From contig CAVSOU010000011.1 of NCBI GenBank assembly GCA_963729625.1, forward strand, positions 864,001 through 928,000: a DNA stretch of 64,000 bases, written 5' to 3'. The stretch's first letter is position 1; every line of letters begins with the position of its first letter. The DNA is from an uncultured bacterium. Lineage in GTDB: Bacteria; Chloroflexota; UBA5177; JANWHV01. The position numbers were made by a program, and so were the translations under genes. Under the pieces are notes generated by a model. The model was not told the DNA's origin, did no database searches, and was given only the letters and a program-made list of their open reading frames with translations. This document shows, piece by piece, positions 6,678 to 54,277 of this stretch.

Positions 6678-6919
6678 GTGACACTCCCTTCATGCACTGC
6701 ACGCGACCACTGCAAGTCGGAGTCTACCCGCGGAATGCTGCTCGCACCCATTATAGAGCTTCCTGCAGGAGTCACGAGCCTCGGGGCCTAACCAAAGGCT
6801 TGGCGCGATCGTGACGCCGCGATCACGCGGGCGGAGGCATACATCGTCCACCATGCTCATTGTCGCTCATGGTAAACTCTCCGACGACGGCACCTGCCCG
6901 GCGTGAACGGACGTGACTG

Positions 6920-7477
6920 ATGAGCACGATCTACACTATTGGCCACAGCAATCACCCCGGGGAGAAACTCGTCGACCTGCTGAAACAGTTCAGTGTGACC
7001 GCCGTCGTCGATGTGCGGACTGCGCCGTACAGCCGTTACAATCCGCAGTTCAACCGAAGTAACGTTGAAGTGCTCCTGGCTCAGTATCACATCAGCTACG
7101 CATATGGCGGCAAACACCTGGGTGGCCGCCCGGGGGATCCGACCTGTTATAAGAGCGGCAGCCTTCCCGGCGACGGCGCAGACTATCTGCACCAGGTTGA
7201 CTACCCGGCAGTGATGCAGCGCGACTGGTTCCTGAAGGGGATCGAGCGGCTGCTGGAGATGGCAGCATCGGAATCCGTCGCCATCCTGTGCAGTGAGGAG
7301 GATCCGGCTCAGTGCCACCGGCACCACCTCATCGCGCGATATCTCCTGGATAGCCATCCGGAGGTCGATGTGCGGCATGTCCGCGGCGACGGGAACATGT
7401 TCTCGGCCCGCGACATCCCGAGATCTGTCGACATTACCGTGGTCACGCAACATTCGCTGTTCCCGGATATGCCATGA
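6920..7477 (+). CDS. DUF488 family protein
   Basis: IYTIGHSN, VVDVR..PYSRYNPQF, LGGRP and LCSEEDPAQCHR motifs. Confidence 0.93.
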   Translation: MSTIYTIGHSNHPGEKLVDLLKQFSVTAVVDVRTAPYSRYNPQFNRSNVEVLLAQYHISYAYGGKHLGGRPGDPTCYKSGSLPGDGADYLHQVDYPAVMQRDWFLKGIERLLEMAASESVAILCSEEDPAQCHRHHLIARYLLDSHPEVDVRHVRGDGNMFSARDIPRSVDITVVTQHSLFPDMP

Positions 7478-7914
7478 GACTGCACACGCTCGGCTTTACG
7501 CGGAAGCGAGCGGAAACGTTCTTCCGCCTGCTGGGCCGGTACGCCACCCAGCGCCTCGTCGACACTCGGCTCAAGCCGGGCGGGCAGCTGTCGGGTTTCG
7601 CCCAGAAGCAAGGCCTGCCGTATTTCCTCTCCAAATTGGCCGGCGGCTGCCAGTATGTACACGGGCCTGTGCTCGCACCCGACCGGGAAATCCTGCAGGA
7701 CTCTCGCGCCGGCGGCGACTGGGCGCGCTGCACGACTCGATTCGAGGCCTGGATGAACGCGCGCGGCATTCCCGGAGCGCTGGACCGCTCCAGATGCGAA
7801 GCGCTGAGATCCTGCCTGCTGTGCAGCGAGGTCATAGCCCAGCATTGCCGCCGCGGGATCGTGGCCAAGCGACTGGCGGCGCGCTGGCACGACGTGGAGA
7901 TCATCCGCTTGTGA
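7474..7914 (+). CDS. DUF488 family protein (second subfamily)
   Basis: LHTLGFTRKRAETFF, LVDTRL...QLSGFA, LAP, CLLCSE....CRR. ATGA overlap with the upstream gene. Confidence 0.85.
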   Translation: MRLHTLGFTRKRAETFFRLLGRYATQRLVDTRLKPGGQLSGFAQKQGLPYFLSKLAGGCQYVHGPVLAPDREILQDSRAGGDWARCTTRFEAWMNARGIPGALDRSRCEALRSCLLCSEVIAQHCRRGIVAKRLAARWHDVEIIRL

Positions 7915-10900
7915 GGCAGCGCCTCGTAATCACCGACCTGACCCGCATGCAGCAGGGACGCGTGTGCGTGGCAGGCTACGATCCCGGCATGCAGTGCGTC
8001 CGGCCGGTGCTTCCGCCTCCGGGTATCCTCGAATACATGCTGGGCCTGCCCGGCCGCCCGCTCGTTTTCCCGGGCGCCGAGATCGAGCTCGAGCTTGGCG
8101 AGCCAACCCCACAGCCGCCACACACGGAAGATGTGCCCTTCGCACTGCACTCTCTGCGATTCCTCCGGCGACTGCCGGAGCCTGCCTGGAGAGAGTTGCT
8201 CGACGCCACCGAATCCGAGAATGCCGAGGCGATCTTTGGCCAGCCGATACGCCAGGAGCCGGGTCACTACGTGATGGACGGCAGCGGGCCTCGCTCCCTC
8301 GGCACCTTGCGGCCGCGTCGTGTCTTGGGTGTCAGGCAGGAACGGCGCGATGGCACGTCCAGATACCGCCTGGGGTTCGTGGACGCGAGCGCTGCCACAT
8401 ACTGGCTGGCGGTCACCGACCTGGCCTGGCGCTACTTCCTCAACCTCCATGAAACGGATAGCGGCGATCCGGAAGCGGTCGCACGCCATCTCACCGACGT
8501 GCTGCGGAGCCGCAGTGTCTACCTCCGTCTCGGGCTCGCTCGCGGCTGGGAGCAGCATCCGGGCCTTTGCTCCGTGCAGATCACCGGCGTTCATACCTTC
8601 CCTGATTACCTGGACGGGCACACATTTGCCGATTTCGCTCCGGCGATCGACGGAGACGGCGGCTCAGCCAACTTGCTGGCACGATTCAATCTCGCTCTCT
8701 TGCCCGACGACGATCCGCCGGCCTGGAGCAGCCGCCTGCGAACCGGGCTGGTCACACTGGCCGCCGAGTACGGCGGGCCCAACGCCGGAATAGCCTTGCT
8801 CGAACAACTGTTCCCTGATGGACACTGTGCGGCAGGCCTCACCGAGCGCGACGCCTGGGCGCGTCTGCTTGTACGCAGCGGAAGGCTCTCCGAGGCGCTG
8901 TCGTGTGCCGAGCAGCGCCGTCAGACGCGCGATAGCTATCTTCCGCGCATGATCATGCTGCAAGCCCATCTTGCAGCGACCGATCTCGAAGCTGCCACCG
9001 AGGATGCACGCGGTATCGAGGCCGTGGCGGAGCAGCAGTCTGTCGCGCCAGCGATCGCGCGCGGCTACATGGCCCTCGCGCGCTCAAGCCCGGCCGAAGC
9101 GGAGCAGTCATTTCGTGACGCCCTGGCTTCCCGTCCCGATCACCTGGAAGCGCTGGCCGGTCTTGCCGAGGCTCTCGCTCAGGCAGACGATACTGCCGGC
9201 GCGGCAGCCGTGCTGCGCGACGCCGTTGGGATCTGCGGCGCCGAAGCCAGGCCGGCCCTGCTGCGCAGGCTGGCAGAGTTCTGTCCCGAGGAACACGAAT
9301 GGGCGCAGACCGAGCTCCGCGCCGCGATCGGTGGACTGGCCGAGCGGATACGTGCCAACCTGGCGGAGGCCCGAGTCGCACACCGCTCCGCCGCGGCCCG
9401 GGCGGAGGCCGGCGTGCCGCGACGAGATACGGAGAGGACCACTGTCGTGCCTGGGGCCGATCTCCTCGCCGCGGCCACCGTCGATGCGAATGAGCTCCCT
9501 TCCGAGAAGCTAGCCGGGATCCTCTACGAGCACTTTGGCCACAGCACGTTCCGGCCGGGCCAGGCGGTGGTGCTGCGTTCGGTGTTGAGCGACGGCAAGG
9601 ATACGCTCGCGATCATGCCGACCGGGGCCGGCAAGTCGCTGTGCTTCCAGCTACCGGCGCTGGTGTTGCCTGGCGTCGTGCTGGTCATCTCGCCGATCGT
9701 CGCGCTCATGGCCGATCAGATTGCCGGCCTGGCCGACGTTCCGGCTCTGGCCGAGCGGTCATGCCTGATCAACAGCACACTGACTGTCGCGGAACTGGAG
9801 AACCGGTATCGGCGGCTGGCGGCCGGCGCATACAGCCTCGTGTATGTCGCACCGGAGCGCCTGCGGCAGGGCAGATTGATCCATGCCTTGCGGCGCGTGG
9901 GAGTCTCCCTGCTGGTGATCGACGAGGCGCACTGCCTCAGCCTGTGGGGGCATGCCTTTCGGCCCGACTACCTCGCCATCGGTCGGGTGGCTGAGTTGCT
10001 GCGGCGCCCGAGGATACTCGCCGTCACGGCTACCGCTACCCCAGAGATGCAGGCCGAGATCGCGCACACGCTCAACCGCAAGCTGGCGGTGGTGAACACC
10101 GGGGTCTTGCGCGACAACCTCTTCCTCGAGGTCTGCAAGGTGGCAAACGAGCGGGAGAAGCGATCACAGCTCCTGGAGTTCGTGCGCAGCGCGCGCGGCC
10201 CCGGGATCGTGTATACGGGCAGCCGTGACCGGTGCGAGCAATTGGCGGCAGCGTTGCGCCGGGGGGGCGAGCGGGCGGCCTTCTATCATGCCGGCATGCC
10301 GGCCGCCGAGCGCGACGCCACACAACGCGCTTTCATGGCCGGACAGATCCGTGTCCTTGTCGCTACCATCGCCTTTGGCCTCGGCGTCAACAAACGCGAC
10401 ATCCGGTTCATCGTCCACTATCAGCCGTCGCGCTCGCTGGAAGCGTATACGCAGGAAGCAGGCCGTGCGGGCCGCGATGGTCAGCCGGCGCACTGCGTGC
10501 TGCTCGCCACCTCGGCGGACAAAGGTACCCTGACGCGTCGGGCGCACGAGGATCGCGTGCAGCTCGATAACCTGCGCGAGCTGTACAGACTGGTCCGGCG
10601 CGCGGTCCAGGACAGCGCCGGCGGGCTGGTCGACGGGCATGCCCTGCGGCACGCAGGCGAGGAGGGCGACCAGGCGGAAACGACGAAACGGGTCGGGCTG
10701 AGCATACTCGAACGGGCCGGGTTCCTCACGCGCGGCCTCGACGTCCCGCGCGATGTCACCATCCAGCTCTTGCACGATCCACTGGAGCAGCCTCTCAAAG
10801 ACCAGGCGGCGGCACTCCAGTTGCGCCTGGGTCGACCGCGCACACTGCGCCTGGACCAGGCGGCGAGCGCCCTGGGCACGCCGGCCGACACGGTAGAGCC

Positions 10901-11498
10901 CGTGCTGACGGGATGGCGCGATCAGGGATTGATCAGCTTTACGGTGGGTGGATCTGCTTTGCAGCTGACACTGGCAAATCCCGTGCCGCCCGACGGCACC
11001 CATCGGCTTGACGAGATTCTGGCGACCATGGATCGCGCATCCCAGGCCCGTGCTCGGGCTCTTGCCCGCTATATCGACACTACCACGTGCCGCAATCGGG
11101 TCATCGCCCGGCACTTCGGCGTGCCCGCCGGAGCATCGTGTAGCCGCTGCGACGTCTGCGATCCTACCGGGCGCCGGGCAGCACGCCGTGCACCCCCGCG
11201 GCCGCCGCCGCCGCGCGTGAAGGGGCTGGATACGCGCGAAGCGATCCTCCGGCTGGTGGCAGAGCTACCGTTTGCCGCAGGCAGGACCGGCCTGAGCAGA
11301 ATTCTGGCCGGCGCCGGCAGCAGTCCTATTGAGCCGCAGCGATGCAGGCTGTTCGGCGCCCTTGCCGGGCGGACGCAGGTGTCGATTATTCGGGAAATAG
11401 ACGCCCTCCTGGAGCAAGGCCTGCTTGCCGTCAGCTTCAGGCAGCAGAAGCCGTGCGTCGTGCTCACCGAGGAAGGTTATAGCCGTCTGGCCCGGTGA
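7911..11498 (+). CDS. fusion protein: dual-OB-like domain + TPR-like helical region + RecQ-family helicase (Zn-binding and RQC winged helix, no HRDC)
   Basis: GTG 7911 overlaps the upstream stop (GTGA). N-terminal ITDLTRMQQGRVCVAG...VRP...PPHTED...RSLG; helical repeats; MPTGAGKSLCFQLP, VIDEAHCLSLWGHAFRPDY, TATAT, QEAGRAGRDG; CR...CSRCDVC; GRTGLSRILAG. Confidence 0.88.
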   Translation: MRQRLVITDLTRMQQGRVCVAGYDPGMQCVRPVLPPPGILEYMLGLPGRPLVFPGAEIELELGEPTPQPPHTEDVPFALHSLRFLRRLPEPAWRELLDATESENAEAIFGQPIRQEPGHYVMDGSGPRSLGTLRPRRVLGVRQERRDGTSRYRLGFVDASAATYWLAVTDLAWRYFLNLHETDSGDPEAVARHLTDVLRSRSVYLRLGLARGWEQHPGLCSVQITGVHTFPDYLDGHTFADFAPAIDGDGGSANLLARFNLALLPDDDPPAWSSRLRTGLVTLAAEYGGPNAGIALLEQLFPDGHCAAGLTERDAWARLLVRSGRLSEALSCAEQRRQTRDSYLPRMIMLQAHLAATDLEAATEDARGIEAVAEQQSVAPAIARGYMALARSSPAEAEQSFRDALASRPDHLEALAGLAEALAQADDTAGAAAVLRDAVGICGAEARPALLRRLAEFCPEEHEWAQTELRAAIGGLAERIRANLAEARVAHRSAAARAEAGVPRRDTERTTVVPGADLLAAATVDANELPSEKLAGILYEHFGHSTFRPGQAVVLRSVLSDGKDTLAIMPTGAGKSLCFQLPALVLPGVVLVISPIVALMADQIAGLADVPALAERSCLINSTLTVAELENRYRRLAAGAYSLVYVAPERLRQGRLIHALRRVGVSLLVIDEAHCLSLWGHAFRPDYLAIGRVAELLRRPRILAVTATATPEMQAEIAHTLNRKLAVVNTGVLRDNLFLEVCKVANEREKRSQLLEFVRSARGPGIVYTGSRDRCEQLAAALRRGGERAAFYHAGMPAAERDATQRAFMAGQIRVLVATIAFGLGVNKRDIRFIVHYQPSRSLEAYTQEAGRAGRDGQPAHCVLLATSADKGTLTRRAHEDRVQLDNLRELYRLVRRAVQDSAGGLVDGHALRHAGEEGDQAETTKRVGLSILERAGFLTRGLDVPRDVTIQLLHDPLEQPLKDQAAALQLRLGRPRTLRLDQAASALGTPADTVEPVLTGWRDQGLISFTVGGSALQLTLANPVPPDGTHRLDEILATMDRASQARARALARYIDTTTCRNRVIARHFGVPAGASCSRCDVCDPTGRRAARRAPPRPPPPRVKGLDTREAILRLVAELPFAAGRTGLSRILAGAGSSPIEPQRCRLFGALAGRTQVSIIREIDALLEQGLLAVSFRQQKPCVVLTEEGYSRLAR

Positions 11499-14208: not shown

Positions 14209-16830
14209 TGCTCGGCACCGCCACGTCCTATGTCATGGAGCAGCTAGGCAATGGCAGCAGCCGGCAGACGCGCATCGACCCAGGCGGGGCGCGCACGGTG
14301 ATCACCGATGGGCTCGACGGCTCGCAGACCGCCCTCTATCCGGACGGCATCAAGCTGGTTGTGCAGCAAGCTCCCGATCCACGCTGGGGCATGGAGACGC
14401 CGATGGCCGCCAGCATCACCGCGACCACGCCGGGTGGCAAGGTCACGACCGTCACCAACACCCGGTCTGCCTTGTTGAACACAGCCGGTGATCCACTCAG
14501 TCTCTACACGCTCACGGTGACCAGCGCACTCATTAACGGCGCCGCCACGACCACGACCTATACCGCGTCATCGCGCACCATCGCCATTTCGACGGCAGCA
14601 GGGCGCAGTTCGACCAGCGTGCTCGATAGCCTTGGACGGGTGGTCTCCTGGCAGGCGGCGCCCGGCGTAATCCCGATCACCTACACGTACGATGCGCTGG
14701 ACCGGCTGATCAAAGCGCAGGAAGGAGGCCAATTCGAGACCTACACCTACGATGCCGCGAAGAATCTCGCCACCCGTACCAACGCGACGGGTCAGGCATG
14801 GACGTACGGGTATGATGCCGATGGCAACGTCACGACGCTCACGCTGCCAAAGGGCGAGATCTACAGGCTGGGCTACGACGCGGACGGGAACCAGACAAGC
14901 ATTACCATGCCGAACGGCTCCATCCATAGCCTGCAGTACACTGCGCTTGACGACCCCGCCCGGCAGCGCGGCCGGATTCGCGCACACCTATGATGCGGAG
15001 CTGCGGCTGGCCATGTCCACACTGCCGGATGGCCGTGTCAGCACTCGAAGCTACAATGCCGCAGACCGGCCAAGCACGCTCCAGTACCCTGAGGCGACGA
15101 TCAGCTACGGCTACGCGGCGAACAACACCACCGACCCATTGAGCACACTGTTGCGCACGCCGACCTCGATCGGGGCGGCAGAGACGGTGGGCTTCACCTA
15201 CGATGGGTCGCTGGTGACGGGCAGTGCCCTCAGCGGCGCCGCGGCCGGCCAGTTCAGCTACGGCTATGACACGAGCCTCTTGCTCAACGGCATCTCCCTG
15301 CAGAGTGGCAGCGATTCGGTCAGCATCCCGGTGGGCCGCGACGCGGACGGCCTGGTGACCACGTTCGGGCCGCTGAGCCTGGCGCGGAATGGCCCGCTGG
15401 GTCAGCAAAGCAGCGTCAGCGACGGCACCGCGATGCGCATAAGCGAGACGTACGACGGGCTGGGCGAGGTGGCGAGCCGGGCGCAAAGTGTGCAGGGCAC
15501 GGCCGTCCTGACCGATGCCTACAGCTACGATGCCGTGGGCCGCATCGGCCAGGTCGCGGATCAGGCAGGCGGTGTCTCCCATACCTACACCTACGCGTAC
15601 GACGCGGACGGGCAATTGATAACAGTCAACGAGGATGGCGCCACGATCGAACAGTACAGCTACGATGCGAATGGCAACCGCATGAGCAAGACGCTGGGCG
15701 GCGCGGCGCCTGAGACGGCGACGTATGACGCGCGCGACCGATTGCAGATGCGTGGCAGCACGGCCTACGCCTTCGACGCCTCCGGCTTCATGACCGGACG
15801 TGGGGCTGACACGTTTGACTACAGTGCCCGTGGCGAGTTGCTGCAAGCGACCGTGGGCGGCAATACGGTGACGTACAGCTACGACGGGCTGGGTCGTCGG
15901 GTGAGCCGCACCGACAGCGGCGGCACGACCCAGTGCCTCTATGGAGATCCAGGGAATCCCCTCCAGGTGAGCGCGGTACGCGACCCAGCGGGTGCCCTCA
16001 CTGTCCTCTACTACGACGCGGCCGGGGCACTGACGGCGTTCGACAGCGGCGGCAGCCGGTATTACGTGGCAACGGATGCCGTGGGTACGCCACGGGTGGT
16101 GACCGACGCCACGGGGACGGTGGTGAAGGCGCTCACGTACAGCAGCTATGGCGAGGTGCTGAGCGACAGCGCGCCGAGCTTTGCCCTCCCAATCGGCTTC
16201 GGGGGTGGGCTTACGGACCCGGTGACCGGGCTGGTGCATTTCGGGGCCAGGGACTACGATCCGGCGGCGGGACGCTGGACGGCGATCGACCCCGCGCTCT
16301 ATGACGGCGCGCAGGGGAACCTCTACGCCTATGCCACCAGCGACCCGGTCGATTTCCGCGACCCCACCGGCCTGTTCTGCGTGGGCGCCTCCGCCTACGA
16401 CGGGATCGGCGGTGGCGCACAGTTCTGCGTCGACGACAAAGGCTTCTCCATCTGCGCCGAGGCCGGCTTTGGCTTCGGGGAATCGTTCGAGGCCAATCCC
16501 CTTGGTGGCATGGCCGACAACGGAGTCTCGGCGATAGGGGAGCTGCAATTCAACTACGGTCTGGGCAGCGTCAGCACTGCAGTGACGCTTACACCCTGTG
16601 GAGATGGGCCTGTAGGGCCACAGCAGTTCAAGTTACAGGGAGATTCGAAGGTCACTGCGCTCGGCCTGGGACCTGAGGGCTCAGTTAACCTTGATGGCAA
16701 CGGGAACGTGCAAAGCAGCGGCGACTTCTCGCCGAATAAGTTTGACTTAGGCTCCGTGGGGGAGATGGGATTCGAGGGGAAGATTGCCGCCCAGGCCTGC
16801 AGCAATCTGCCCTGGGGCTATCTCAACTAG
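14208..16830 (+). pseudogene. RHS/YD-repeat protein, 5'-truncated and frameshifted near 14950, with RHS core and C-terminal extension
   Basis: YD repeats (YTYDALDRL, YGYDADGN, YSYDANGNR), core end TGLVHFGARDYDPAAGRWTAIDP...NLYAYATSDPVDFRDPTGL. Split over ORFs 14235-14993 and 14752-16830. Confidence 0.88.
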
Positions 16831-16906
16831 CGTGCCCGCATGTACCGGCCTGCTGGCCCGCAGGCGCCGGTTTCACCGGCGCATGGCGAGTCGAAGGGAG
16901 CATGGC

Positions 16907-17395
16907 GTGCCCGAGTACGACTCCTTCTTGCTACGTGTGTGGCGCAGCAGGCGACGCGATGGCTGGGAGTGGGTACTGAGATTGGAGCACCTACAGGGAG
17001 AGGAACGGCAAGAGTTTGATAACCCGGAAGCGCTGGTAGAGGCGCTTTGGGCGCTGGTGGAGGCGCAGTCCGCCTCGAAGGCCGAGCCGTCGCACATCGG
17101 CAGTGCCGGCGAGGTCAGCGTAGCGGAGTCCGCTGAATCTGAGATGCAGAGGGGCCAGTCAACCGGACCCCAGGTCATCTGGTCCGCCAGGGTGCTGTGC
17201 GCGACTTGCTCAGCGGTCAGACGTGTTCTCCACTGTGCTCCGCTGAAGGGCCGCGCTAGAAGTCGCCGACTACCACCCGGGCGGACGACATGCTGCGTGT
17301 CCGCCGCGGCAAAGGGACCAAGACGCGATCCGGGCGGCTGTCTTCGGCGCGGTGCTCGACGTCCTGTACCAGTTGGAGCCTACAGCATTTCGTGA
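16907..17395 (+). CDS. small hypothetical protein (SFLLRVW...W..RLEH...ER..F family)
   Basis: GTG after GAAGGGAG. The ~50-aa N-terminal motif resembles a small-protein family I recall from Chloroflexota; the C-terminal part looks non-conserved. Confidence 0.55.
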   Translation: MPEYDSFLLRVWRSRRRDGWEWVLRLEHLQGEERQEFDNPEALVEALWALVEAQSASKAEPSHIGSAGEVSVAESAESEMQRGQSTGPQVIWSARVLCATCSAVRRVLHCAPLKGRARSRRLPPGRTTCCVSAAAKGPRRDPGGCLRRGARRPVPVGAYSIS

Positions 17396-17629
17396 CTCTC
17401 CACTGACCCGGCGTAACTCCCTACTCGCCGCGCACGTCAACGCGGAACAACGCAGTCTTCACGACCGAGTCGCCTTGGTTGATTCCGCGTACCCTTACAG
17501 TTGTGCGGCTGGGGACGTTCAGGCTCTGCAACCGGAAGGTGCGCCGGTCAGGCCCGCACTCTCGAGCCAGGTCCTTGCCATTTGGCGCGCGTGGTCGCGT
17601 TTATCGGCGTGCGATACGGAGGGCGGACA

Positions 17630-18597
17630 ATGCGTCTCGGACGTCATGCGACACGCGTCTCGCGTCTGGTTCTTGCTGCCTGCGTCATCTCCACAGGAGG
17701 GGCGGTTCTGGGCGCTGGCGCCGGTGCGCGCGTCAGCGCGGCGAAGGACTCAGGCTCGAATGTGCAGATCGAGTACAAAGGGAACTTCGTCAGTACCGGA
17801 ATCTCACAAGTCAATCAGGGACAGGTGATCAAGAGGGTCAGCGCGGTTCAGTGGGACTTTGTCTGGTCAGGTACGGTCGACCAGCTGTTCTATCCGATCA
17901 AGTATGGCTTGCCTTCGGGGAACGTGCTTGTGCCGCGCTTGCTGACGGGTTCGACCATCGTCGCCTATCCCCCGAATGAGCCTGGAAGCTGCACGGGCGC
18001 ACTGTCGCTGCGCAAGTTCGCACAGGCATCGAACGGTGCGGCGAGCATACCTACCGCGCTTGCTCTGAACGGCGTCCCGGATGTCGACCGATCCAAGATT
18101 GACCTGGGGTTCGTCATCCCGGAATCGGGTCTTATCCTGCAATCCAGCGGCACAGGGGATTGCTCAGCCGGTTCCTACAGCTCCGGCGCAGCGGACAGCC
18201 TGAACATCAAACGGCCACAACCGGTGTTCAGCCTGACGAACCTCGGGGTCACGCAGACTAAGAGCTACAACGGCACCGAAAGGACCGCGACCTCCGGCGA
18301 GGTCGACACGACCACCATACGATCGACCGTTATGTTTGGCGGCGCGGCCTGCACCGGCTCGTCGTCTGCCGGAGGCTCGAGTGGGCTGGCCGCGCTCTTC
18401 GGCTGCTATGTGGCACTTGGCGATTCCTACTCGGCAGGTCAGACCCCATCTTCGCCGGGCACGACGTCTGCTCTGCCTCGAGCTACTTCTTCCCGCTGGA
18501 TGCTGTGACCTACGCCGAGACGCTTCACCCGAACGCCGAAGGGCACGCACAGCTGGCGTCGCTCCTGCGGCGTGCTGCCGGCCCACCTCCCGACTGA
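17630..18597 (+). pseudogene. secreted protein with internally deleted SGNH/GDSL hydrolase domain
   Basis: Signal peptide. Block I YVALGDSYSAG is followed immediately, in another frame, by FAGHDVC...ETLHPNAEGHAQLA (block V), ending TGA 18595-18597. Confidence 0.75.
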
Positions 18598-45911: not shown

Positions 45912-45987
45912 TTCGAGAAGAGCAAACTCGTCGTGAGGCGAGGACGCAAAGCCACGGAGCTCGATGAGCCCGCCGGGTTGCCGAAAG
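45912..45987 (+). promoter_or_regulatory. c-di-GMP-I (GEMM-I) riboswitch aptamer, A20 variant
   Basis: TTCG-AGAAG-A-GCAAACTCGTC-GTGA-GGCGAG-GACGCAAAGCCACGG...GCCGGGTTGCCGAA: GCAAA bulge, GNRA loop, CGCAAAGC and GGGTTRCCG hallmarks. It ends ~55 nt upstream of the GTG at 46041. Confidence 0.9.
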
Positions 45988-51508: not shown

Positions 51509-51639
51509 ATGATGGAGATTCTCTTCGAACAAAGTCGGGGACTAGACGTTCACAAGAAGACGGTGGTCGCCTGCCTGGTGACACCGGCGGACGCGGGGCG
51601 CGTGCGGCAAGAGTTGCGGACGTTTGGCACGATGACCAA
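51509..51639 (+). mobile_element. IS110-family transposase N-terminal fragment
   Basis: RBS AGGAGG, then MEILFEQSRGLDVHKKTVVAC...RTFGTMT; similarity ends abruptly at ~51639. Confidence 0.85.
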
Positions 51640-51690
51640 CCGGATGGCTTTGCGTCCCCGTCTCACGACGGGTTTGCCCTGTTTCACTGG
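51640..51690 (-). promoter_or_regulatory. c-di-GMP-I riboswitch aptamer, 3'-truncated (G20 type)
   Basis: Minus strand reads AAACAG-G-GCAAACCCGTC-GTGA-GACGGG-GACGCAAAGCCATCCGG, then runs into IS110 sequence. The 3' half is missing. Confidence 0.8.
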
Positions 51691-53831: not shown

Positions 53832-53967
53832 AGCGGGCTGATCTGTTAACAGTGCTCTTGGCTGGCGACTACAGCATTTGCGGGATGGCATCGAGCCTTC
53901 TCTGTTCTAATGTGAATACCGGATAGCTTTGACGCGCAGATAGTACCTGGGCACCTTTGTCTGCGCT
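53832..53967 (+). repeat. diverged non-coding repeat copy B (candidate promoter/operator module)
   Basis: Aligns to 52299-52436; contains ATGGCA-17-TAATGT. Confidence 0.75.
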
Positions 53968-54277
53968 GAGCGAGTGGTGCAACCGGCCAGATCTCTCTGT
54001 AGTGGGGCGATCGAGGCCGTTTTTCATAGTTGAGCGCCGCGTGGTCCGGCAAGTGGTGTGGTGTGTCAATGAGTGGGCCCGGGCAGGCGCCGAGAATTGA
54101 GGTGGTTGCATATCGCCGTTCCCGCGCCTCTCAGCGACGGCGAACACCGCCGGTAGCGTGTCGGCAACAGGATCGGCGAACAGCACGGCGCTGCCCATGG
54201 GTTCCTTCATGCTTCCCAATAGCGCTCGCCGTTGACGCACGTTCGTCATCCGCGCGCACGACCGAAAGGGCTCGCCA

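Follow-up and report, generated by a model that had tools for sequence, protein, structure and literature searches.

A DUF488-DUF488-DuOB cassette joined to a RecQ-family helicase in a Chloroflexota genome: a candidate DNA-end or single-strand processing module

DUF488 and dual OB-fold (DuOB) proteins are widespread families whose functions, to our knowledge, are known only as computational predictions. A DUF488-DUF488-DuOB cassette was reportedly described by Burroughs and Aravind in 2023; the abstract of that work is said to predict novel DNA-end processing for the RapZ-C/DUF488/DUF4326 clade, to place some of the enzymes in virus-host conflict and to mention RNA-terminus activities within the superfamily, and it serves here as a lead only. 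The three-gene core is already catalogued, in Pfam (PF04343 and PF22557) and in PADLOC (PDC-M45B and PDC-M45C). Here we describe such a cassette in the 65% GC genome of an uncultured Chloroflexota bacterium, on a stretch of contig CAVSOU010000011.1 of 64,000 nucleotides (nt), hereafter the window, on which gene coordinates are given. Only the helicase fusion of this cassette is unusual, in that the DuOB domain heads a protein of 1195 amino acids (aa) that continues through a TPR-like region into a RecQ-family helicase. We propose, with somewhat less than an even chance of being right, that the operon encodes a candidate module for processing DNA ends or single-stranded DNA (ssDNA) that is built on, or tethered to, a RecQ helicase. 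The genes and the domains of the third gene are as follows.

6920..7477, + strand: gene 1, DUF488 paralogue 1 (DUF488_1), 185 aa, ATG start
7474..7914, + strand: gene 2, DUF488 paralogue 2 (DUF488_2), 146 aa, ATG start
7911..11498, + strand: gene 3, DuOB / TPR-like / RecQ protein, 1195 aa, GTG start
7911..8645, + strand: DuOB domain, residues 1-245 (Pfam PF22557; AlphaFold2 model)
8646..9500, + strand: TPR-like region, residues 246-530 (Pfam TPR matches at about residues 384-442, nt 9060-9236)
9501..10550, + strand: RecQ-family helicase core, residues ~531-880 (DEAD, Helicase_C, TIGR00614)
10551..11030, + strand: insertion of ~160 aa between the helicase core and the Zn module, residues 881-1040 (no Pfam family above cutoff)
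11031..11498, + strand: RecQ Zn-binding module (RecQ_Zn_bind; residues 1041-1083, with C1060, C1077, C1080 and C1083), C-terminal RQC-like winged helix and stop codon

The stop of gene 1 and the start of gene 2 overlap in an ATGA at 7474-7477, and the stop of gene 2 and the start of gene 3 in a GTGA at 7911-7914, so the coupling of the three genes seen in the first-pass annotation is borne out by the open reading frame (ORF) coordinates. The frame of gene 3 begins earlier, at GTG 7293, in the mechanical ORF list; GTG 7911 is the correct start because it places residue 1 opposite the initial Met both in stand-alone DuOB proteins and in the full-length homologue P0004. This alignment also fixes the length of the helicase fusion, which had been estimated at ~1195 aa. 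Since each of the three genes has dozens to hundreds of homologues, they are real rather than chance ORFs of high-GC DNA.

By searching one genome per species with a DuOB query, we surveyed the best 80 of 176 confirmed DuOB stretches, referred to below by locus numbers where needed. Chloroflexota account for 75 of the 80 loci, the exceptions being a member of the Planctomycetaceae (L009), a record labelled bacterium (L032), a member of the Methanotrichaceae (L050) and two Bacillota (L051 and L076). We found a complete DUF488-DUF488-DuOB trio in 68 of the 80, in agreement with the earlier statement that pairs of DUF488 proteins co-occur with a dual-OB protein. The order was DUF488_1-DUF488_2-DuOB in 61 loci, two fused DUF488 genes followed by DuOB in 4, and DuOB-DUF488_1-DUF488_2 in 3, while 7 loci were broken off at a contig end and 5 (L048, L052, L053, L059 and L063) were incomplete away from a contig end. 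Overlaps of 4 nt joined DUF488_2 to DuOB in 32 of 69 loci and DUF488_1 to DUF488_2 in 10 of 69, where six gene-1/gene-2 gaps (-438, -441) stem from fused or cross-hitting ORFs and are artefacts. No accompanying gene family beyond the trio occurred in more than 12 of the 80 loci. DUF488-DUF488-DuOB is an obligate, self-contained cassette.

The window operon shares with the known cassette (PDC-M45) its paralogue order, tight coupling and conserved motifs, and identity between its DuOB domain and the stand-alone proteins listed is 49-59%. It differs in that its DuOB domain heads a 1195-aa TPR/RecQ protein whereas DuOB is elsewhere a protein of ~247 aa, in that the PDC-M45A model does not recognise this DuOB domain, and in that DUF488_2 has CRR and not CHR in its motif. 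The Bacillota loci, which score highest on the PDC-M45B and PDC-M45C models, have a DuOB-first gene order. The impression of a layout without a characterised counterpart therefore held in part: the core trio is catalogued and conserved, while the DuOB-TPR-RecQ fusion is unusual.

The N-terminal domain of gene 3 had been called OB-like, and this stands on its Pfam match, on more than 300 homologues and on a confident model. Pfam DuOB (PF22557) matches residues 10-227 with 31.7 bits (cutoff 27). We found 304 stand-alone homologues, and among the 120 listed, which are mostly ~247 aa long, 119 carry PF22557. The AlphaFold2 model, built on a 42-row alignment, consists mostly of beta strands (pLDDT 91.6, pTM 0.90). 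In a Foldseek search of the PDB it had 13 matches at E<=1e-3, all of them tandem-OB DNA binders (CTC1/CST, Teb1, POT1, HIN domain, TEBP-alpha), followed in rank by LEF-3, RADX, RPA70 and the Thermus/Deinococcus SSB. Tandem-OB end binders and DNA sensors (POT1, CST/CTC1, TEBP-alpha, RPA70, and the HIN domains of AIM2 and p202) are thus the best structural matches, with probabilities of 0.9-1.0. A PDB profile search with a second alignment (A2) was dominated by the helicase rows of that alignment and was uninformative on DuOB. DuOB proteins have an invariant polar set of their own (R12, C19, R31, H71, E73, D74, D170, R206, R211, Q223 and D232), which includes PPH71-T-E73-D74 and may mark a site for a specific ligand or for end binding. 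Two further DuOB-containing proteins were observed: P0110 (370 aa), with DuOB fused to a glyoxalase/dioxygenase-like domain (PF00903), and a 437-aa ORF on the Methanotrichaceae archaeon contig (L050:608-1918), the extra part of which has no Pfam match.

The remainder of gene 3 confirms that the OB partner is fused to TPR-like repeats and a full RecQ motor, as Pfam and NCBIfam domains and invariant motifs attest. TPR_19 matches residues 388-438 marginally (28.0 bits against a cutoff of 25), and TPR_16, at 24-27 bits, falls under its cutoff of 32.7. The helicase core carries DEAD at residues 549-713 (1.1e-21) and Helicase_C at residues 750-857 (1.3e-17), with the motifs TGAGKS (571-576), DEAH (671-674), TATA (706-709) and QEAGRAGRDG (848-857). 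With 332.9 bits for NCBIfam TIGR00614 (recQ_fam; cutoff 219.8) the protein is a RecQ subfamily member, and with 388 bits it lies below the cutoff of 640.2 for the canonical RecQ equivalog TIGR01389. The core also matches the bacterial RecQ structures 4tmu and 1oyw in a PDB sequence search. In the insertion we found a weak HTH_Crp_2 match only, and a homologous stretch is present in 100 of the 150 best helicase representatives. RecQ_Zn_bind (PF16124) scores 30.5-32.2 bits against a cutoff of 25; RQC reaches an E-value of 0.045 in the window protein and ~1e-5 in the homologues P0010, P0131 and P0139; a search for an HRDC domain gave no match in the window protein. GKS, DEAH, TAT, QxxGRxGR and the four Zn cysteines are invariant among relatives (alignment A1), and with these intact the motor looks functional. 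Compared with E. coli RecQ (1oyw; TIGR01389), the protein has the same full set of motifs, including the aromatic-rich loop region (CLSLWGHAFRPDY), the same four-Cys Zn-binding module and an RQC-like C-terminal winged helix, whereas it differs in the ~160-aa insertion before the Zn module, in having no HRDC found, and in the ~530 extra N-terminal residues of the DuOB domain and TPR-like region.

Other DuOB-RecQ fusions (P0004-P0006, P0133, P0227 and P0247) and TPR-RecQ proteins without DuOB (P0007-P0010 and P0131) were identified as protein sequences. Among 5.8 billion clustered proteins, residues 1-520 of gene 3 matched only seven long proteins (P0004-P0010). One of these, P0004 (1195 aa, 75% identity), has the full window architecture and is the sole other protein sharing DuOB-TPR-RecQ. 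In two others (P0005 and P0006, 961 aa) DuOB is joined directly to a different RecQ-like helicase, the core of which is 32% identical to that of the window protein, and the remaining four (P0007-P0010) are TPR-RecQ proteins without DuOB. The tail of P0005 and P0006 contains a phosphoribosyltransferase (PRTase)-like motif by our reading of the alignment, and Pfam lists no PRTase family there at E<=1e-4. A DuOB search of proteins of at least 430 aa gave three matches, all RecQ fusions. An exhaustive search with the whole protein gave 57,927 helicase relatives, and among the best 150 representatives three more carry an N-terminal DuOB: P0133 (1047 aa), which lacks TPR, has an HRDC-like end and combines a divergent DuOB (28% identity) with a helicase of the window's RecQ clade (43-44%); P0227 (900 aa), whose helicase is a canonical RecQ and, by our own reading of the sequence, includes an HRDC-like region; and P0247, a 626-aa DuOB-RecQ fusion. 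DuOB-RecQ fusions without the TPR region thus number five (P0005, P0006, P0133, P0227 and P0247), with different RecQ partners. Helicase-core identity to the window protein is 32-44%, and across the fusions TPR, HRDC and a PRTase-like tail are each present in some proteins and absent from others.

In a quick tree of DuOB domains (48 rows, SH-aLRT support), a group with support 99 unites the window protein and P0004 with P0005, P0006 and a single stand-alone protein, while P0227, P0247 and P0133 are placed elsewhere on long branches, and the well-supported branches require at least two origins of the fused state. On the helicase side, the nearest Atlas cluster is a 932-aa RecQ family with 81 members, commonest in Chloroflexota. 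From residue ~256 to the C-terminus the window protein is 50-65% identical to the TPR-RecQ paralogues of the phylum (P0007-P0010, P0131 and the Atlas cluster), over the TPR-like region, the insertion and the RQC-like end; the TPR-like region is common to P0004 and to the DuOB-less P0007-P0010 and P0131, and what separates these paralogues from the window protein is that they have no DuOB domain. We read the window gene as a cassette DuOB gene fused to the phylum's TPR-RecQ paralogue, and DuOB-RecQ fusion as an event that is rare but has recurred. That DuOB is joined to a RecQ DNA helicase suggests DNA as the target of the cassette, and the fusions taken together (in the window and in six other proteins, with differing helicases) provide independent evidence that the cassette substrate is DNA and its partner a RecQ-type motor.

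Both DUF488 proteins match Pfam DUF488 (PF04343; cutoff 22.2), gene 1 with 77.4 bits (1.8e-21) and gene 2 with 45.4 bits (1.5e-11), and score below the cutoff of 27 for the DUF488-N3a subclade (PF22751), at 22.8 and 20.3 bits. In PADLOC, gene 1 matches PDC-M45B (1.7e-48) and gene 2 matches PDC-M45C (5.6e-38). Gene 1 contains C124-S-E126...C132-H133-R134, the full C-x-E...C-H-R motif, and gene 2 contains C117-S-E119...C125-R126-R127, with Arg where His is otherwise nearly invariant; the description of two different DUF488 proteins with a C-x-E...C-[HR]-R motif was therefore accurate. The C-x-E...C-H-R motif is 100% conserved in both cassette paralogues (~66 loci each), and DUF488_1 of the window retains all 23 columns that are invariant in 33 aligned homologues. 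In the AlphaFold2 model of DUF488_1 (pLDDT 90.8), by our own reading, C124 closes a beta strand and H133-R134 begin the next helix, a PTP-like position. The weak Foldseek matches of this model (probability 0.87-0.97, TM 0.34-0.40) include Cys-dependent PTP-fold phosphatases, among them the polynucleotide 5'-phosphatases BVP (1yn9) and Mce1 (2c46, human capping enzyme), as well as the unrelated folds KaiC, FtsY and Csa3. The model weakly points to a phosphatase-like Rossmannoid fold of the paralogues, resembling Cys phosphatases. Searched by sequence, neither DUF488 protein matched a solved structure at E<=1, except for one chance match (E 0.45). In four loci (L042, L046, L047 and L068, contigs of metagenome-assembled genomes from Thermomicrobiales/Chloroflexota) DUF488_1 and DUF488_2 are fused into a single ORF of ~330-390 aa upstream of DuOB, which argues that the two proteins act together physically. 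Published mentions of the family include a CTP-binding fusion of ParB with DUF488 and, on an archaeal plasmid, a DUF488 gene within a replication/repair neighbourhood; neither mention reports a function for DUF488.

In the proposed DNA-end or ssDNA processing module, the RecQ motor would unwind duplex DNA in the 3'-5' direction and the DuOB domain would grip the exposed single strand or strand end. The DUF488 proteins would probably form a heterodimer, as the four natural fusions suggest, and dock on DuOB. They would act at a DNA terminus or lesion, where a phosphate-linked group would be removed, transferred or remodelled by the strand-end Cys (C124 of gene 1) together with Glu, His and Arg. 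The cassette would be paired with a separate helicase or with none in most Chloroflexota, and in this lineage the DuOB gene would have become fused to the ~930-aa TPR-RecQ paralogue of the phylum. The first-pass annotation had offered DNA repair or anti-phage activity; DNA repair or processing fits the evidence better, and the anti-phage half is without support from context. The role of "sensor" that it gave to the module was overstated, being pure inference.

Several results weigh against this reading. No RecQ or TPR homologue was found within ~8 kb of the cassette among 6334 ORFs from the 80 loci, so the layout with RecQ is not a conserved one; because none of the 80 loci has a nearby RecQ, the RecQ link is rare and the helicase is no general requirement. 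The likeness of DuOB to tandem-OB binders comes with low TM-scores (0.23-0.38) and sequence identities of 6-13%. The Foldseek search with the DUF488_1 model gave no PDB match at E<=1e-3, so a phosphatase-like chemistry of DUF488 would draw on a weak fold likeness and on the work reportedly published in 2023. DUF488_2 of the window is the sole protein with CRR instead of CHR among 35 aligned sequences and deviates at ~8 other positions that are conserved in at least 90% of sequences; having lost the motif His it may be inactive, and its divergence could mean that its function has been relaxed or altered in the lineage that carries the RecQ fusion. Neither a LexA-type box nor a shared motif was conserved across the upstream regions of 63 homologous loci, and we see no sign of regulation of the cassette by DNA damage. 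PADLOC lists the DUF488 pair as components of a defence candidate, and a literature search found no functional study of any DUF488 or DuOB protein.

The genes around the cassette bear on whether it serves the host or acts in conflict with phages. In the window, the neighbours encode ketoacyl synthase (KAS), GFO/IDH oxidoreductase, aldehyde dehydrogenase (ALDH), BNR/Ycf48-like and PNPOx-like proteins. The gene after DuOB varies in other loci: gatB lies directly downstream in 7, and others are GNAT, alpha/beta hydrolase, mnmA (L015), MoxR, a beta-lactamase-fold protein and a NuoG-like gene. From the 28 loci with full flanks we took 11 and scanned 109 neighbouring proteins from them against PADLOC at E<=1e-10. 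Three matched: L003 supplied a MzaA-like and a mad3-like protein, and L013 supplied a type II methylase. These two were the only loci with defence-type neighbours among the 11 sampled. In L003 (9045-12744, - strand, from a Chloroflexi metagenome-assembled genome) the MzaA-like (1.5e-67) and mad3-like (1.2e-31) genes stand just downstream of the cassette. The same scan matched none of the 11 window neighbours, and the suggested association with defence islands was thus not found by PADLOC or among neighbours. The two Bacillota loci adjoin defence-like genes, GmrSD/PDC-M55C-like in L076 and PDC-S07/AbiEi-like in L051. Neither the 72,556 plasmid records nor the 50,697 phage records contained a match to the window DuOB; both collections hold few Chloroflexota, and within these limits we rejected carriage on mobile elements. 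DUF488 in general occurs in 115 plasmid and 8 phage records, all at less than 40% identity, which is uninformative for the cassette. GC content across the operon region (0.61-0.69) is similar to that of the flanks, and a compositional island was rejected. Housekeeping neighbours, the absence of a GC anomaly and the lack of plasmid or phage matches together favour a chromosomal, largely vertically kept function, and this context suggests host DNA maintenance rather than immunity.

The alternative that the operon is a PDC-M45-type defence against phages with a helicase of its own, in which DuOB or RecQ would sense phage replication intermediates or DNA ends while the DUF488 enzymes modify or disable phage or host nucleic-acid ends, seems unlikely to us. 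It draws on the strong PDC-M45B and PDC-M45C matches of genes 1 and 2, on weak PDC-M45A matches to 2 of 19 DuOB sequences (L067, 8.7e-6; L062, 1.7e-4), on the defence-like genes beside the cassette in the Bacillota L076 and L051 and the MzaA-like and mad3-like neighbours in L003, and on the fact that RecQ-like motors are known in defence systems, with the PADLOC models of DpdF (7-deazaguanine DNA modification/restriction) and PsyrT (the RecQ-like toxin of PsyrTA) matching the helicase core. The virus-host conflict in which some of these enzymes are reportedly placed would fit as well. However, the similarity to DpdF and PsyrT is limited to the generic RecQ-like core (residues ~532-885), the score for the DpdF equivalog (NF041063) is 211.2 bits against a cutoff of 550, and no dpd genes or PsyrA-like partner occur among the scanned neighbours. 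PDC-M45A gave no match to window residues 1-300 even at E<=1, and only 3 of 109 neighbours and none of the 11 in the window matched PADLOC. Housekeeping neighbours with gatB synteny in 7 loci, the even composition of the window and the absence of DuOB from plasmid and phage records point the same way, and PDC systems are, as we take the PADLOC naming to mean, untested candidates, which we also count against a defence role. PADLOC seems to hold a second candidate system of DUF488 and DuOB type (PDC-M19), since PDC-M19A matches cassette DUF488 proteins at up to 1.1e-20 and PDC-M19B weakly matches the DuOB of L062. A literature search found no paper using "PDC-M45" and none using "DuOB" in the present sense.

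Two other explanations concern the substrate and the fusion itself. If the cassette acted on RNA (tRNA, RNA-end healing or NAD-derived RNA adducts), recruitment of RecQ would be secondary; gatB (7 loci) and mnmA (L015) directly 3' of the cassette would fit, as would the RNA 5'-phosphatases among the weak DUF488_1 fold matches and the capacity of OB folds to bind RNA too, with RNase R at rank 37 among the DuOB Foldseek matches. The RNA-terminus activities that the 2023 abstract is said to mention would fit too. Yet all long DuOB fusion partners found are RecQ-family DNA helicases, several of them different, the best structural matches of DuOB bind DNA, and the neighbours other than gatB are unrelated, so we hold an RNA substrate to be distinctly improbable. 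The fusion could also be incidental, with a DuOB gene that lost its stop codon beside an ordinary RecQ paralogue of the lineage and two halves that work independently. TPR-RecQ is indeed widespread alone (P0007-P0010, P0131 and the 81-member Chloroflexota cluster), the cassette is widespread without RecQ (0 of 80 loci), and the exact architecture occurs only in the window and P0004. We nevertheless judge this improbable, for the fusion is intact, of equal length and 75% identical in P0004, five further DuOB-RecQ fusions have other RecQ partners, and no DuOB fusion to a non-RecQ partner was found among proteins of at least 430 aa, a point qualified by the shorter glyoxalase-like fusion P0110.

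Upstream of the operon, one possible promoter was identified.

6850..6878, + strand: possible promoter, TTGTCG (6850-6855), 17 nt, TAAACT, with TG at 6870-6871 (extended -10)

The sequence TGGTAAACT at 6870-6878, noticed earlier as an extended -10 element, is present, and with TTGTCG it forms a sigma-70-like site at 8 of 12 consensus positions. A promoter and terminator scan reported no + strand site for the operon, this 8/12 site lying below the scan threshold, and its status as a promoter is a plausible inference without support from the scan. An Rfam scan found no RNA family near the operon. For GAAC-N4-GTTC, which we take to be the LexA consensus of Gram-positive type, exact boxes within 250 nt upstream of DUF488_1 occurred in 0 of 63 regions and boxes with one mismatch in 2 of 63 (about 4 expected), and the commonest upstream 8-mer occurred in at most 9 of 63; with the LexA box at or below chance, SOS regulation was rejected. 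Antisense ORFs on the - strand (7443-8621 and 10164-11114) overlap the operon genes, and - strand ORFs lie over the cassette in 65 of 80 loci. These long antisense ORFs were rejected as genes, since high-GC DNA typically has such ORFs and their clustering comes only from conservation of the sense genes.

Elsewhere in the window, a gene with RHS/YD repeats (teneurin-like shell) lies 2.7 kb downstream of the operon as two overlapping + strand ORFs in different frames (14235-14993 and 14752-16830), a pair that may represent a frameshifted or split polymorphic-toxin gene; the ORFs that follow it (16784-17395 and 17501-18508) have no Pfam match. Three c-di-GMP riboswitch aptamers, all above the Rfam gathering thresholds, are found within ~8 kb of one another: c-di-GMP-I-GGC at 45912-45986 (+), c-di-GMP-I at 51632-51688 (-) and c-di-GMP-II at 53912-53997 (+).

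A broader proposal, that in Chloroflexota the cassette is a conserved accessory to DNA-end metabolism that depends on RecQ and carries out an unrecognised repair step, is on balance somewhat unlikely. If it were true, two cysteine phosphatase-fold enzymes, brought to ssDNA by a POT1/RPA-like tandem OB, would clean or tag the termini that RecQ exposes, and the recurrent DuOB-RecQ fusions would be a Rosetta stone from which the substrate (DNA ends) and the partner (RecQ) of the cassette could be read off. The housekeeping neighbourhoods also call for caution against annotating PDC-M45-like matches as defence by default. The value of the finding lies in this Rosetta-stone clue and in an experimental handle, rather than in a new kind of system: with the window protein, assays of OB binding, unwinding and DUF488 recruitment could be run jointly on one polypeptide.

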